Origin: an uncultured bacterium
Lineage (GTDB): Bacteria > Patescibacteriota > Microgenomatia > UBA1400 > PJMF01
Length of the DNA: 33,098 nucleotides
NCBI GenBank assembly: GCA_903891335.1
Contig: CAITDX010000044.1
Coordinates: 1 to 33,098 of the forward strand
Direction: 5' to 3'
Positions within the stretch are counted from its first letter, which is position 1. Every line of letters begins with the position of its first letter. The translations under genes were made by a program, and so were the position numbers. Under the pieces are notes generated by a model. The model worked only from the letters and a program-made list of their open reading frames with translations. It made no database searches and was not told the origin of the DNA. This document shows positions 2,384 to 24,485 of this stretch, piece after piece.

Positions 2384-3094
2384 ATGTCTACACCCATTAT
2401 TGAACTCAAGCACGTTAGTTATCGCTACCAACAAGAACTCGTTTTGCGTGATGTTTCTCTCCAAGTTAAAAGTGGAGATTTTCTAGGATTAGTGGGACCA
2501 AATGGAGGAGGCAAGAGCACGTTGCTGAAACTCATCCTTGGTTTACTACCATTACAAACCGGCGCGTTGCAACTCTTCGGACAGAAGCAGCAACAGTTTC
2601 GTGATTGGCATAAAATTGGTTATGTTGCACAACGAAGCTTCATCAAGCACGCACAACCAGTCACTGTCACAGAAGTTCTAGAAATGACTGGCGCTTCTGC
2701 AAGTGAAATCATGCGCGCCCTAGAACTAGTCGATTTGCTCAATCAAAAGCACAAAAACATCGCTGAGCTCTCTGGTGGTCAAGAACAACGAGTATTTATC
2801 GCTCGCGCGCTACTAAATCAACCACAACTTCTCATCCTTGATGAGCCAACCGTAGGCGTTGATCAGAAATCACAAAACTCCTTTTACGAATTACTCAACC
2901 ACCTCAATCAAGCCCATCAACTCAGCATTATCTTGGTTTCTCATGAAGTTGACCTAATCAGTTCCAGTGTCAAAAACCTTGCTTGCATCAATCAATCTTT
3001 GCTCTATCATGGCCATCCTGATGCGCTTCGTGACGAGCAGCTGATTAGCAAAGTCTATGGCAGCAAACAGCAATTAATCACCCATCACCACTAA
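2384..3094 (+). CDS. znuC: Zinc ABC transporter ATP-binding protein
   Basis: Walker A GPNGGGKST, signature LSGGQ, Walker B LILDEPT. Confidence 0.92.
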   Translation: MSTPIIELKHVSYRYQQELVLRDVSLQVKSGDFLGLVGPNGGGKSTLLKLILGLLPLQTGALQLFGQKQQQFRDWHKIGYVAQRSFIKHAQPVTVTEVLEMTGASASEIMRALELVDLLNQKHKNIAELSGGQEQRVFIARALLNQPQLLILDEPTVGVDQKSQNSFYELLNHLNQAHQLSIILVSHEVDLISSSVKNLACINQSLLYHGHPDALRDEQLISKVYGSKQQLITHHH

Positions 3095-5141: not shown

Positions 5142-6182
5142 TCAAAAGGTGACTGCGTCAAAAGCACGTAATGCTTTTTGGACTGCAAACAGCTGAATAG
5201 TAGGGTTGCTACTAGCATCAAAAAAACTAAATGAAGCAAAGGGGCCAGGGCTACCTTTCATAATAAATGGCGTCACGGCTTTGACCCGAGAATCGATCCA
5301 AATATATCGAAGCGCATATAAATAATACTCAGACAAATAATAGTTGGTCAGATACGAAGATGCCCAGCCAGTTTCGGTAATAAAAACTTTGAAGTCATAG
5401 CCGGTTTTATTTTTAAGCCAAGTCAGTTCATGTAAAAATCCCCGCAATGAGTTTTGGCCAGTACGCTTGGGTGAGGCAGCAAAATCTGGATTGGGATATG
5501 AGTGTGAGTTCCAATAGTCAATCGTGTCAAAGATATCAGGATCGAAATGTACCATACTCTCCAAATAGGCGAAAGCTTCCCGAGTATCTGCAGTATTACT
5601 CGCTGCCAAATCCATCGCTGCTGGCAAAATTCTAAAGTTTCGCTCCTCAGAACGGAACCAATCGCTGGTAAAACGCAAAATTGACGCATAGAGGAGAGGA
5701 TCGAGTCTATTACCCCATTCTTTGGCATGATTAACTTCATTGAAAACAATCACAAATTTCTCATCCTGACGCCAATCCAAACTCGATAAAAAACGAGCTA
5801 AGTCAGTAATATCGCGTCGCGTCGGAATTTCCCAGGCTCCAATTTCAGGGTTGAAGCGCGTGCTTAAGCGTACAATAGGGATGAGCTTGAGTCGGTAAGC
5901 CTCGTCAAAGAATTGTTGCCACTCAGTCCGCTTACTCAAATCATCTAAAGTTACGGGAATAGTCACATAGCGCCATTCCTCATCTGTATATACTCGACGA
6001 ACATCAGCAATTTCACCCGGATGCAAAATATGCATGCCTAAGACATTACCTGTGTTAGCATTTGCTGCAGAAGGCCAAAACAAAGTTGCGCTCAAAAACC
6101 ATAAGGATAAGCCCACTCCAACACTCATGTAAGTGCGAAAAATCCCGGCTATATGAGTCAATTTTGATTGATAATTAGGCAT
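5142..6182 (-). CDS. Exported glycoside hydrolase, clan GH-A-like
   Basis: Signal/TM segment; FNEVNH (acid/base), HSYP and ITETGW (nucleophile) motifs. Confidence 0.75.
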   Translation of the reverse strand: MPNYQSKLTHIAGIFRTYMSVGVGLSLWFLSATLFWPSAANANTGNVLGMHILHPGEIADVRRVYTDEEWRYVTIPVTLDDLSKRTEWQQFFDEAYRLKLIPIVRLSTRFNPEIGAWEIPTRRDITDLARFLSSLDWRQDEKFVIVFNEVNHAKEWGNRLDPLLYASILRFTSDWFRSEERNFRILPAAMDLAASNTADTREAFAYLESMVHFDPDIFDTIDYWNSHSYPNPDFAASPKRTGQNSLRGFLHELTWLKNKTGYDFKVFITETGWASSYLTNYYLSEYYLYALRYIWIDSRVKAVTPFIMKGSPGPFASFSFFDASSNPTIQLFAVQKALRAFDAVTF

Positions 6183-6226
6183 TTTTATTCACTTATTTTA
6201 GCATAAATGGTATACTAAAAAAAGAG

Positions 6227-6898
6227 ATGCAAAAGTTCTTCTTTGTTTTTAGTTGGTTTTTAGTATCAGCTGCAGCAGTACTTGTTGGTGCTTCAGCATA
6301 TAGTTTTTATTTCCTAGCCCAAGCCAATGGCGCACCCTCTCGCTTCGAAGGAACACAGCTGCAAAAAATTGCTGCTGCCAACCCAGCCAACCAAGGTGAT
6401 AGCCTACTGGTCACCACGATCATCGAGAGTGAAGATGCTCGAGCGGAACTCGTAGCTAAGTTTCTCGAACGTCACAACTCACCCATGCAACCTTATGATT
6501 ACTATGGTCGCAAACTAGTTGAAATTGCTGATCGCTATCATATTGACTTCCGCCTCCTGCCAGCCATTGCCATGCAGGAATCCAATCTCTGCCGCAATAC
6601 CAACCCCGGAGCTCCCAACAATTGTCTTGGCTTTGGGATTCATAAACGCGGCACCCTCGACTTTGATAGCTATGAGGCAGGTTTCGAGCGAGCCGGGAGA
6701 GAATTGAAAGCCTATTACATTGACCGTGGCTTGACTACTGTCGAGCTCATCGAGAGCAAATACACTCCTAGCAGCAATGGCTCCTGGGCCAGTTCAGTCA
6801 ATCAATGGATGGCGGAAATGCGCTATGACGATCGCCAGTTGGGGAGAGAACTCAAAGACAACACCAGCGTCACTGAATTTGCCAAACCAAGTCCTTAG
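6227..6898 (+). CDS. Exported lysozyme-fold (glucosaminidase/lytic transglycosylase-like) protein
   Basis: N-terminal TM; DFRLLPAIAMQES, NNCLGFG, KYTP..W motifs. Confidence 0.7.
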   Translation: MQKFFFVFSWFLVSAAAVLVGASAYSFYFLAQANGAPSRFEGTQLQKIAAANPANQGDSLLVTTIIESEDARAELVAKFLERHNSPMQPYDYYGRKLVEIADRYHIDFRLLPAIAMQESNLCRNTNPGAPNNCLGFGIHKRGTLDFDSYEAGFERAGRELKAYYIDRGLTTVELIESKYTPSSNGSWASSVNQWMAEMRYDDRQLGRELKDNTSVTEFAKPSP

Positions 6899-6953
6899 GG
6901 CCGTGTCTTAGACAACCATCTACTTGAGTTGTTTTGATCTATTTTATTTACTA

Positions 6954-6981
6954 TTGATTATCTTATAATATTTGATATAAT
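6954..6981 (+). promoter_or_regulatory. Sigma70 promoter with no downstream ORF
   Basis: TTGATT (6954-6959), 16 bp, extended -10 TGaTATAAT (6973-6981). Confidence 0.55.
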
Positions 6982-6987
6982 ACCCAT

Positions 6988-7064
6988 TAACTCAGAAGGT
7001 TATTCCTCACCGGGATTTACGTTCTGAGATCAAAACATCCCACTAAAAAATGGTGGGATTTTTT
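6988..7064 (+). ncRNA. Candidate small RNA
   Basis: Promoter, then hairpin CTCAGAA...TTCTGAG, then terminator-like hairpin; no ORF. Confidence 0.4.
7037..7064 (+). terminator. Intrinsic terminator (possibly bidirectional)
   Basis: ATCCCAC-N9-GTGGGAT followed by TTTTT. Confidence 0.65.
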
Positions 7065-22712: not shown

Positions 22713-23609
22713 ATGAAGACCACCTTCAAAATCAGCACTAACTTCTGCATGGCTCTTACTGTATTTAGTATGATGCTTTTTTCAGCTACAAATGCGGAAA
22801 AAATTAATAGCATCGTTCGACCAGTCGAAGCAGCTAGACCAGAAAAAATTGATATTTGTCATGCTACTGACTCTCACACTAATCCTTATGATAACGGCAA
22901 AAAAGAAGTTAGCTATGACTCAATCGTCACCGTGCCAAATGGTCATGACACTCACAATGGCCCAGTTTGGTATGCTGGCATTGCCGATCATAGTTGGGGA
23001 GATATCATCCCTCCATTTAGCTGGACAGAGTGTCCTGAGGATGAGGCTGCATATACTAGTGATGACTCAACTAAGGCATGCAAAATTAATTTACCAGGAG
23101 GTGTAAAAAAATACACTGATGAAGTTGCAAAAAACTACGCCGGTAAAAACTGGACTACTGAAGGTCAGGCCGTTTTCAACAACAACTGTGAAATCCCAGG
23201 AGACACCTGTGAAGAAACCGTCGCTTGTCCCACTCAATGTGACTACGAAGGCGGAGAAATTGAAGGTGAATGTGGCCCAATTGAATGTGATGCGACAGAA
23301 TCTTGTGAAGAGGTTGATCCTTGCGAAGAAAACCCTGAATTAGAGGAATGCCAGGAACCAACTCCTACTCCCACCGCAACTCCTACTCCAAGTGTGACTC
23401 CAACCGCAACTCCCACTCCAGAAGATCCCAACAATGAGTCTTCCAAGCTGTGGGTAGAGCACTTGGCTTGTGACCAATATGATTTCCGTGCTGAGATGGA
23501 TCTGAAAACTGATGACAAACCAGTCCAAGATGTGCTCGTCACCTTCACTTACAATGGTTTAAGCAAGAATGCCTACACCAACAAAGATGGCCGTGCTTCA
23601 ACTTTGTGA
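22713..23609 (+). CDS. Secreted surface protein, N-terminal part (signal peptide, CHAT..NPY domain, Cys-rich region, PT linker)
   Basis: Signal peptide, ICHATDSHTNPY, WGDIIPPF; stops mid-domain at TNKDGRASTL* inside a hairpin. Confidence 0.8.
   Translation: MKTTFKISTNFCMALTVFSMMLFSATNAEKINSIVRPVEAARPEKIDICHATDSHTNPYDNGKKEVSYDSIVTVPNGHDTHNGPVWYAGIADHSWGDIIPPFSWTECPEDEAAYTSDDSTKACKINLPGGVKKYTDEVAKNYAGKNWTTEGQAVFNNNCEIPGDTCEETVACPTQCDYEGGEIEGECGPIECDATESCEEVDPCEENPELEECQEPTPTPTATPTPSVTPTATPTPEDPNNESSKLWVEHLACDQYDFRAEMDLKTDDKPVQDVLVTFTYNGLSKNAYTNKDGRASTL
23358..23420 (+). repeat. Pro-Thr linker repeat
   Basis: Encodes PTPTPTATPTPSVTPTATPTP. Confidence 0.8.
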
Positions 23610-23625
23610 ACAAACAATTCACAAC
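23603..23625. other. Apparent 23-nt frame-disrupting hairpin insert
   Basis: TTGTGAA-CAAACAA-TTCACAA (23604-23624); CAAC repeated at 23599-23602 and 23622-23625; removing it fuses the two ORFs. Confidence 0.65.
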
Positions 23626-23899
23626 CTCTTTCACCTTCACTGGTGAAGCAGTCGTCAAGGCTACTCCAAACAATGGTTTTGCTACTCAAGAAACCAAAGC
23701 AACTGCCGAAACTAACTGTCAGGAAATGGGTGCCATCAGTACTCCAGTCAGCACTCCAGCTAGTTCTGGTCAAGTCCTTGGTGCGAATACCTACGCCGAA
23801 ACTGGTGTCTTCGAAGACGTGCTTATGAGCATTGTCGGTCTCAGTGGTGCTACAATGACTTCTGTCGGAGCCATGTTGCATGCCAAGAAGAAGAACTAA
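23606..23899 (+). CDS. C-terminal part of the surface protein, carrying the sortase sorting signal
   Basis: GQVLGA, YAETG (LPxTG-like), hydrophobic segment and basic tail KKKN; no signal peptide of its own; -1 frame relative to the upstream ORF. Confidence 0.75.
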   Translation: MNKQFTTSFTFTGEAVVKATPNNGFATQETKATAETNCQEMGAISTPVSTPASSGQVLGANTYAETGVFEDVLMSIVGLSGATMTSVGAMLHAKKKN

Positions 23900-24485
23900 A
23901 CAGATTCAAAAGCCAGCAAAACGCAAACAGCGCTTTGCTTCACTATCACAACTGAATATCCCTATCGCCTTAATGGTGGTAGGGATATTTTTGATGGCTC
24001 TCTCAGGTCTACACTGGTATTTCCGCTATCAAGCGCTTACCATCAGTGAGACAATACTCGGTCAATATGCTTCCTATGAAGTTGAAGGGGCAGAGCGTCG
24101 ACCAGTCCACATCAAGATTCCTTGGTTTGTCGATGTCGACATTAGCCAACAAACCTTAGTGGCAAATCAGTGGACAATCGCTGAGAAAGAAGCTTCGCAT
24201 CTAGCCAGCTCGGCCCGACCTGGCGAGCAAGGCAACATCATCATTTATGGCCACAACACGCGGCAAATCATGGGCAATATTCGCGCACTCAAAGGTAATG
24301 AAATCATCACCCTGACTACCGCTGACGGCCAAGAACATCGCTATCGCATCACCAAGATTGCCGAAGTTCAACCAGATGAAACTGAGTTTCTCCTGCCAAC
24401 ACAAACGGAAACCCTGACGCTCTATACTTGCTCAGGATTCATGGACCGCCTCAGATTTGTGGTGAGGGGGGAGAGGGTGGAGTAA
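23880..24485 (+). CDS. Sortase
   Basis: N-terminal TM; catalytic His (YGHN), Cys (TLYTC) and Arg (RFVV). Confidence 0.92.
   Translation: MPRRRTKQIQKPAKRKQRFASLSQLNIPIALMVVGIFLMALSGLHWYFRYQALTISETILGQYASYEVEGAERRPVHIKIPWFVDVDISQQTLVANQWTIAEKEASHLASSARPGEQGNIIIYGHNTRQIMGNIRALKGNEIITLTTADGQEHRYRITKIAEVQPDETEFLLPTQTETLTLYTCSGFMDRLRFVVRGERVE

Follow-up and report, generated by a model that had tools for sequence, protein, structure and literature searches.

A 23-nt hairpin insertion probably inactivated a sortase-anchored surface-protein gene in a lake Patescibacteria genome

Here we describe a gene, present in a single copy and encoding a sortase-anchored surface protein, that was probably broken by a recent, lineage-specific insertion of 23 nt, a reading to which we assign a probability of roughly 0.7. 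We infer that the function of the surface protein was lost with it. Pseudogenes and split genes produced by small insertions are a known kind of event in bacteria, and the present case is most likely an ordinary example. The inserted block has the formal layout of a ribosomal bypass element, and it had been proposed as one in an initial annotation made from the sequence alone; much of what follows therefore weighs the two readings against each other, together with several others that would leave the gene in use.

The window, by which we mean the whole stretch of 33,098 nt that was analysed, is one contig (C44) of an 843-kb genome in 85 contigs that is 98% complete and belongs to the Patescibacteria/CPR group, an assignment based on the source names of the homologues and on the genome table. 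The features that matter for the argument are these:

22713 to 23609, + strand: ORF1, 298 aa, cut short by a TGA
23599 to 23602, + strand: left copy of the direct repeat CAAC
23603 to 23625, + strand: insertion of 23 nt relative to all orthologues, a 23-column gap in the DNA alignment against the sister genomes G011 and G014
23604 to 23624, + strand: perfect hairpin, stems TTGTGAA/TTCACAA (7 bp), loop CAAACAA (7 nt)
23606 to 23899, + strand: ORF2, counted from a GTG, 97 aa, in the −1 frame relative to ORF1
23607 to 23609, + strand: TGA stop of ORF1, within the 5′ arm of the hairpin, overlapping the GTG at 23606-23608 (GTGA)
23622 to 23625, + strand: right copy of CAAC, overlapping both the 3′ arm of the hairpin and ACC, the Thr codon at 23624-23626
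23792 to 23896, + strand: C-terminal sorting signal, made of YAETG (23792-23806), a hydrophobic stretch and a KKKN tail, conserved in the orthologues
23880 to 24485, + strand: intact sortase gene (Pfam PF04203, E = 7.6e-21), overlapping the end of ORF2

The two reading frames divide one protein between them. ORF1 begins with a signal-peptide-like N-terminus (MKTTFKISTNFCMALTVFSMMLFSATNA, read by eye) and continues through a conserved N-terminal domain, a Cys-rich stretch and a Thr/Pro linker into an Ig-like domain, of which it has the first four and a half strands. The N-terminal domain belongs to no Pfam family, and a search of the ESM Atlas with it returned no usable match; the databases place the start of ORF1 at residue 13. 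ORF2, whose frame has been open since 23516, encodes the last two and a half Ig-like strands, a linker and the sorting signal, which has an LPXTG-like layout of YAETG, the hydrophobic stretch VFEDVLMSIVGLSGATMTSVGAMLHA and the basic KKKN; among the homologues the motif takes the form [YFLM]A[EN]TG. The same arrangement of gene and sortase is found in G011, and the genome of the window has four sortase matches, including the gene at 23880-24485. ORF2 has no signal peptide of its own, no Shine-Dalgarno (SD)-like motif lies in the 20 nt preceding its GTG, no promoter-like site was found before it, and the number of terminator-like sites was 0. The export signal belongs to ORF1 and the sorting signal to ORF2, in a different frame, so that the two are not on the same polypeptide; the intact orthologues carry both on one chain.

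A protein search with ORF1 gave 141 homologues at E <= 0.001 among 5553 candidates, the closest being P0001, of 375 aa and 72% identical, and P0002, of 373 aa and 56% identical, both of them single proteins that read ...TNQDGRASTSFT[YF]... and run on into the same sorting signal. Residues 1-297 of ORF1 correspond to residues 1-287 of P0001, and ORF2, from SFTFTG onwards, corresponds to residues 288-375, so that one piece ends at orthologue residue 287 and the other resumes at 288. When the DNA is aligned with the orthologous genes of the two sister genomes, a single clean gap of 23 columns appears, which rules out a 1-nt indel as the cause of the split and agrees with the initial annotation, where a block insert was preferred; the peptide FVNKQFT, named there as the sign of a simple 1-nt indel if it stood in frame in the orthologues, is not found in them. 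Without the insert the window would read ...DGRASTSFTFTGE, where P0001 has ...DGRASTSFTYTGE and P0002 has ...DGRASTSFTFAGE, and the earlier remark that deleting the block gives a natural-looking peptide is thus borne out, in that the deletion restores exactly the orthologous sequence. Removing 23604-23626 instead gives the identical peptide, the Thr codon then being ACT and not ACC.

The wider sets of relatives agree. In an alignment of 17 proteins (A1), the domain is carried across the site in 13, and extra residues at the site are present in none of the 13; of the remainder, one protein is truncated and three are too divergent at the site. A tblastn search with residues 256-320 of P0001 against the loci of 11 relatives matched nine, all of them continuous over the site. 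The downstream piece shows no decay: ORF2 is 80% identical to P0001, and ORF1 is 72% identical.

The position of the break within the protein was examined on an AlphaFold2 model of P0001, built from a 17-sequence alignment, with a mean pLDDT of 66.6. Residues 232-312 are modelled as a seven-stranded sandwich (block pLDDT of 71-85 for residues 231-310 and 63 for residues 311-320), for which Foldseek ranks Ig-like domains highest, among them the intimin fragment 1f00 (E = 8e-4). The insertion maps between T287 and S288, in the middle of the strand formed by residues 284-290 (RASTSFT). Since the chain is broken halfway along a beta-strand of the Ig-like domain, the product of ORF1 is, on this model, damaged and does not amount to a clean secreted form; it is without the last two and a half Ig-like strands and the whole YAETG sorting signal.

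At the site itself, the DNA reads TCA (23598-23600), ACT (23601-23603), TTGTGAA (23604-23610), CAAACAA (23611-23617), TTCACAA (23618-23624), CC, TCT TTC, and the sequence, the 7-bp stem, the in-frame TGA and the flanking Thr codons are exactly as the initial annotation gave them. Because CAAC flanks the block as a direct repeat, the boundary of the insert can slide and is ambiguous by up to 4 nt: any 23-nt frame, from 23599-23621 to 23603-23625, fits equally well. The hairpin is the minimum-energy fold both as RNA (−4.9 kcal/mol) and as DNA (−4.4 kcal/mol), and its RNA z-score is −3.0 for a 27-mer, −2.0 for a 37-mer and only −1.0 in a 71-nt context. Hairpins of this grade are common in the genome, where 736 perfect hairpins of at least 7 bp were counted in 842,833 bases, so that the hairpin alone proves nothing. 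The feature that rises above chance is that it fills 21 of the 23 bases that are extra relative to the orthologues.

The 21-mer of the insert occurs once in the genome, no other copy being found at up to three mismatches, and the genome contains neither its 12-mers elsewhere nor a longer inverted-repeat element with these termini. No donor template of at least 9 nt was found within about 1.5-2 kb, and none of at least 12 nt in the genome. An exact scan of two public collections gave one match in each, in a coding region of Clostridium puniceum and in an AT-rich metagenome contig; these are unrelated contexts, and both matches are at the level of chance, which we estimate at about 0.3 matches per collection. 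As to the origin of the block, we lean towards an error of replication or repair, through microhomology at CAAC and fold-back synthesis, and away from the footprint of a transposon; in general, events of this kind can come from template switching (PMC7954356, PMC8604942). A footprint left by the excision of a MITE or IS is not supported, for there are no copies at three mismatches or fewer, no parent element and no symmetrical geometry. The likeness consists of a short palindromic remnant beside a short direct repeat; the difference is that CAAC overlaps one arm of the hairpin and does not bracket symmetrical ends. The initial annotation had listed a mobile-element footprint that inactivated the gene among its alternatives: an inactivating insertion is indeed the best-supported reading, and a mobile-element origin, with no copies and no element, is unsupported.

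If the insertion did inactivate the gene, normal translation would read ACU UUG and terminate at the UGA to give a secreted product of 298 aa, and the 97-codon piece downstream would not be expected to yield anything useful, as it lacks both a signal peptide and a ribosome-binding motif. The case shares with ordinary split genes a conserved single ORF that is interrupted, a shifted frame, a stop brought in, a lineage-specific distribution and the company of other, unrelated lesions in the genome. It differs from them in its near-perfect 21-nt palindrome, its 4-nt repeats, the lack of a donor or copies, and the undecayed state of its pieces. Counting against inactivation are the near-perfect palindrome without a donor, the formal bypass-element layout, the undecayed ORF2, the intact sortase and the presence of the allele in two samples; the last three are expected for a very recent lesion, and also for a tolerated one. 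As an ordinary lesion the finding carries little weight: a lake population of Patescibacteria would recently have lost one surface protein anchored to its cell wall. The orthologue of the sister species G011 is broken differently, frameshifted elsewhere by a 1-nt insertion, which fits a rapid replacement of surface proteins in this group.

Slipped-strand deletion classically acts on hairpins flanked by short direct repeats, and for this reason the lesion could revert at a low rate; that such reversion is put to use is unsupported. A stronger version, in which the insert acts as a reversible switch, is unlikely. It would have slipped-strand deletion between the CAAC copies, aided by the hairpin, restore the gene in some cells, with on/off variation of the anchored surface protein as the consequence. 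Surface proteins are typical targets of on/off variation, and palindrome-stimulated deletion between short repeats is well established; here the hairpin sits between two 4-nt direct repeats with a spacing of exactly 23 nt, and the G011 orthologue is also off, if through its own 1-nt insertion. However, there is no mechanism to re-create the same 23 nt, which leaves at most a one-way reversion, and no similar insert exists elsewhere in the genome. Nor was any indel variant at the site found in four sequencing runs, at the level of contigs, which drop rare variants.

Improbable to much the same degree is a translational hop, in which the peptidyl-tRNA-Thr(GGU) would leave ACU at 23601-23603, slide over 20 nt and re-pair with ACC at 23624-23626, the hairpin forming meanwhile in the A site. 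This would restore the ancestral protein exactly and make the insert a tolerated, byp-like element. The peptide upstream of the proposed take-off is ...FTYNGLSKNAYTNKDGRAST, and the expected junction peptide is ASTSFTFTGEAVVK. Short-range hopping and natural bypass elements are documented in the cited passages of PMC7026636, PMC5009743 and bioRxiv 10.1101/2022.08.31.505936, and a good part of the layout suits them here. A single tRNA can read ACU as well as ACC, and the tRNA-Thr(GGU) that the initial annotation had invoked for both codons is indeed among the 45 tRNAs found in the genome. The hairpin starts with the A-site codon and the gap contains a stop; landing on ACC gives the orthologous sequence, and both ORF2 and the sortase are undecayed.

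What tells against the hop is the detail of the take-off. In the documented cases, as the cited passages of the same three sources present them (PMC7026636, PMC5009743, bioRxiv 10.1101/2022.08.31.505936), a stop codon or a rare or unused codon stands directly after the take-off codon. Here, however, ACU is followed by UUG, which is the most frequent Leu codon (25.8 per 1000 in 349 long ORFs) and for which tRNA-Leu(CAA) is present, and the UGA comes one codon further on, not next to the take-off. Once UUG has been read, no UUG or UUA landing codon is available in the frame of ORF2. The gap (23604-23623) has no GAG, GGA, GGAG, GAGG or AGGA, and so nothing like the SD-like motif of the gene 60 type; the hairpin, at −4.9 kcal/mol, is weak, and the take-off codon lies outside the stem, with U23603 facing C23625. 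Finally, the insert is a single instance, with one copy in the genome and none in the 13 proteins or the nine loci of relatives. The proposal that the block is a bypass element or an anchoring switch is thus not upheld, given the UUG after the take-off, the lack of an SD-like motif, the lack of conservation and copies, and a 'secreted form' that ends in mid-strand.

With the bypass cassette of T4 gene 60 and its homologues, as described in the cited passages of PMC7026636 and bioRxiv 10.1101/2022.08.31.505936, the site shares matched codons read by one tRNA, a stem-loop that may form at the take-off, a stop in the gap and coding that resumes in another frame. The gap there is 50 nt and here 20 nt, with take-off and landing codons excluded from both. 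Unlike T4 gene 60, as those passages present it, the present site has a stop that is not beside the take-off, no SD-like motif and no homing-endonuclease cassette nearby; the insert is in no relative, and it sits in a cellular chromosome and not in a phage. The byps of Magnusiomyces capitatus mitochondria, which the cited passages of PMC5009743 and bioRxiv 10.1101/2022.08.31.505936 describe as thought to be miniature mobile inserts, are likewise short frame-breaking blocks in genes with matching flanking codons. We regard it as very improbable that the hairpin is their bacterial counterpart, that is, a miniature insert tolerated by an ACU-to-ACC hop, with ribosomes that terminate at UGA releasing a secreted form. 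In the same descriptions, a single small genome contains 81 byps of 27-55 nt, whereas here there is one copy of 23 nt; and byps have an unused codon in the A site and a mitochondrial translation with relaxed decoding, whereas here the codon is a common one. A bacterial parallel is an adhesion gene of Prevotella loescheii with a reported hop of 29 nt, which is also a surface or adhesion gene with a short frame-breaking block; according to the cited passage of PMC5009743, that claim is unconfirmed and was never followed up.

If the hop were real, it would be the first case of natural bypassing over a short range in a gene of a cellular bacterium, and in a CPR organism, and would offer a compact and easily testable bypass substrate of 20 nt in a cellular bacterium. 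Any insertion with a short flanking duplication, however, mimics the signature of bypassing by a matched take-off and landing codon, and for this reason the matched-codon signature needs conservation or multiple copies before it can be taken as evidence.

An artefact of assembly or sequencing, with the 23 nt absent from the DNA of the organism, was also among the earlier alternatives, and its probability is very low. The insert is real DNA, since independent contigs from two samples carry it without difference: the two Logan contigs over the site have 0 differences and 0 gaps, namely X1 record 2 (975 nt at a depth of 4) and X2 record 10 (388 nt at a depth of 7). No RNA run was listed among those that contain this DNA. 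The exact 97-aa ORF2 was found on seven contigs from three sources (NCBI, Logan and ENA), and a perfect palindrome in a 23-nt block is untypical of short-read error. In favour of an artefact one can point to the low depth (4 and 7), to the origin of both contigs in one study and to the other odd lesions of the assembled genome. X1 and X2 are samples of a single lake-water study and not independent populations; we count them as two samples of one study because one of them may be the source of the assembly. Run X3, from another study, contains a relative, most of whose contigs match at 90-99%; its contigs end at 23590 and resume at 23666.

Least probable of the readings that we scored is that the site yields two products, either by tRNA-Leu slipping −1, from UUG onto UUU, at the UGA or by termination and reinitiation at the GTGA, where the GTG at 23606-23608 overlaps the TGA at 23607-23609. 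The slip would give a full-length protein with eight extra residues and the peptides LVNKQFTTSF and ASTLVNKQFTTSF..., and it is helped by the fact that U UUG keeps two of three pairs and that a stop in the A site favours slippage, as stated in the cited passage of PMC5009743. The extra residues, however, would fall in the middle of a strand of the modelled Ig-like domain, and they are in no homologue. Reinitiation would make an ORF2 product without a signal peptide, in which the sorting signal is useless; the 20 nt before the GTG have no SD-like motif, and all orthologues are single ORFs.

Three further candidates were dropped. Naturally separate, GTGA-coupled genes, which the initial annotation had allowed for, are ruled out by the single ORFs of the orthologues. 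Recoding of TGA (tables 4 and 25) is ruled out because the pieces are in different frames and TGA ends 61 of the 349 long ORFs. Splicing of the block from the RNA, of the BHB type or otherwise, was set aside as the fold is a plain stem-loop without bulges, and to our knowledge no RNA splicing system of the BHB type exists in bacteria.

The recent inactivating insertion that we favour can also be set against the rest of the genome. The whole genome was scanned for hairpins lying over the stop codon of an ORF of at least 100 codons, with an open frame after it. Ten sites were found, of which the other nine look by eye like normal gene ends or junctions; the search for similar hairpin inserts in split genes, which had been suggested as a check, found none in the genome besides 23604-23624. 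A reciprocal BLAST of stop-to-stop ORFs was run between this genome (G000) and the sister genome G011, nearly all of which was covered in 57 stretches, with both pieces required to be at least 35 aa at E <= 1e-6, thresholds that let small or fast-evolving genes escape. Among the hairpin-over-stop sites it flagged only the C25 pair. With subjects of at least 150 aa, eight rows suggested splits in G000, and the surface-protein gene (+23 nt) was recovered and serves as a positive control. A HAD-like hydrolase gene on contig C11 has a deletion of 50 nt relative to G011, and a 499-aa membrane protein on contig C3 has a TAG where G011 has Tyr, both in the assembly consensus and either of which could be a consensus error. 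In G011, two further conserved genes have TAG or TGA replacing Trp or Leu, which, like the 1-nt insertion in the orthologue of the surface-protein gene, could again be consensus errors. This reciprocal comparison of ORFs gave no other frame-breaking block insertion in G000 or G011. The row on contig C19 (−5701..6992, +149 nt) proved to be a 5′ or intergenic region with no split gene, and the four remaining rows consist of short pieces with zero frame difference, which look like shadow frames.

The 5′ piece of the split surface-protein gene (ORF1, 298 aa) carries a conserved domain towards its N-terminus, which is placed as follows.

Window 22830-23250: conserved N-terminal domain, about residues 40-180 of ORF1.

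The domain is characterized by the motif CHATxSxxNPY…NGHDxHNGPVWY…WGDIIPPF…GKNW…C.IP, and it stands at the front of 141 Patescibacteria-type proteins whose ends consist of Ig-like domains and sortase signals. It corresponds to no Pfam family, and neither the Atlas nor the PDB gave a usable match.

The site of the 23-nt hairpin insert was also compared with contigs from X3, a sequencing run of another study in which a relative is present, with matches of 90-99% for most of the relative's contigs. These contigs break off at 23590 and resume at 23666, thereby bracketing the insert site; the break could reflect a branch in the assembly graph, that is, an allele difference, or divergence alone. The orthologous surface-protein gene of G011, a sister genome, is itself frameshifted (L002:2129-2217, on G011:C34, minus strand) by a single extra A near residue 70, reading GTT AACT versus the expected GTT ACT. 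The reading frame of P0001, a database protein nearly identical to this orthologue, is intact.

Within the genome that contains the window (G000), a whole-genome ARAGORN search found tRNA-Thr genes with the anticodons GGU and CGU, and none with UGU in the assembled sequence despite an ACA usage of 8.3 per 1000 codons; the UGU gene may lie within the unassembled 2% of the genome.

Broken genes elsewhere in G000, and nonsense lesions in G011
G000:C11:8818-9484: split HAD-like hydrolase gene, compared with an intact 234-aa orthologue in G011 (L059).
G000:C3:22708-22710: in-frame TAG replacing a conserved Tyr in a 499-aa membrane protein gene.
L042 (G011:C23) 2896-2898, minus strand: TAG replacing Trp in an 886-aa penicillin-binding-protein-like gene.
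L032 (G011:C13) 6475-6477, minus strand: TGA replacing Leu in a 382-aa gene.

Judging from the alignment with G011, the hydrolase gene is split by a putative 50-nt deletion, the two ends of which have a short GGA/GAGC-like microhomology in common. The membrane protein reads …PQVVAY*VIIFAVYW… around its stop, with 75% and 86% identity to the G011 orthologue on the two sides. Several single-base nonsense lesions occur in conserved genes among the metagenome-assembled genomes of the genus; these could be genuine or arise from errors in the consensus.

G000:C25 6356-7425, minus strand, outside the window: ABC-ATPase-like ORF and the next ORF.

This pair has an ATGA overlap located at a 7-bp hairpin, and both ORFs match a single 357-aa open frame in G011 (L050 2013-3083). 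The two genomes differ here either because the ORFs were fused in one or because the frame was split in the other.
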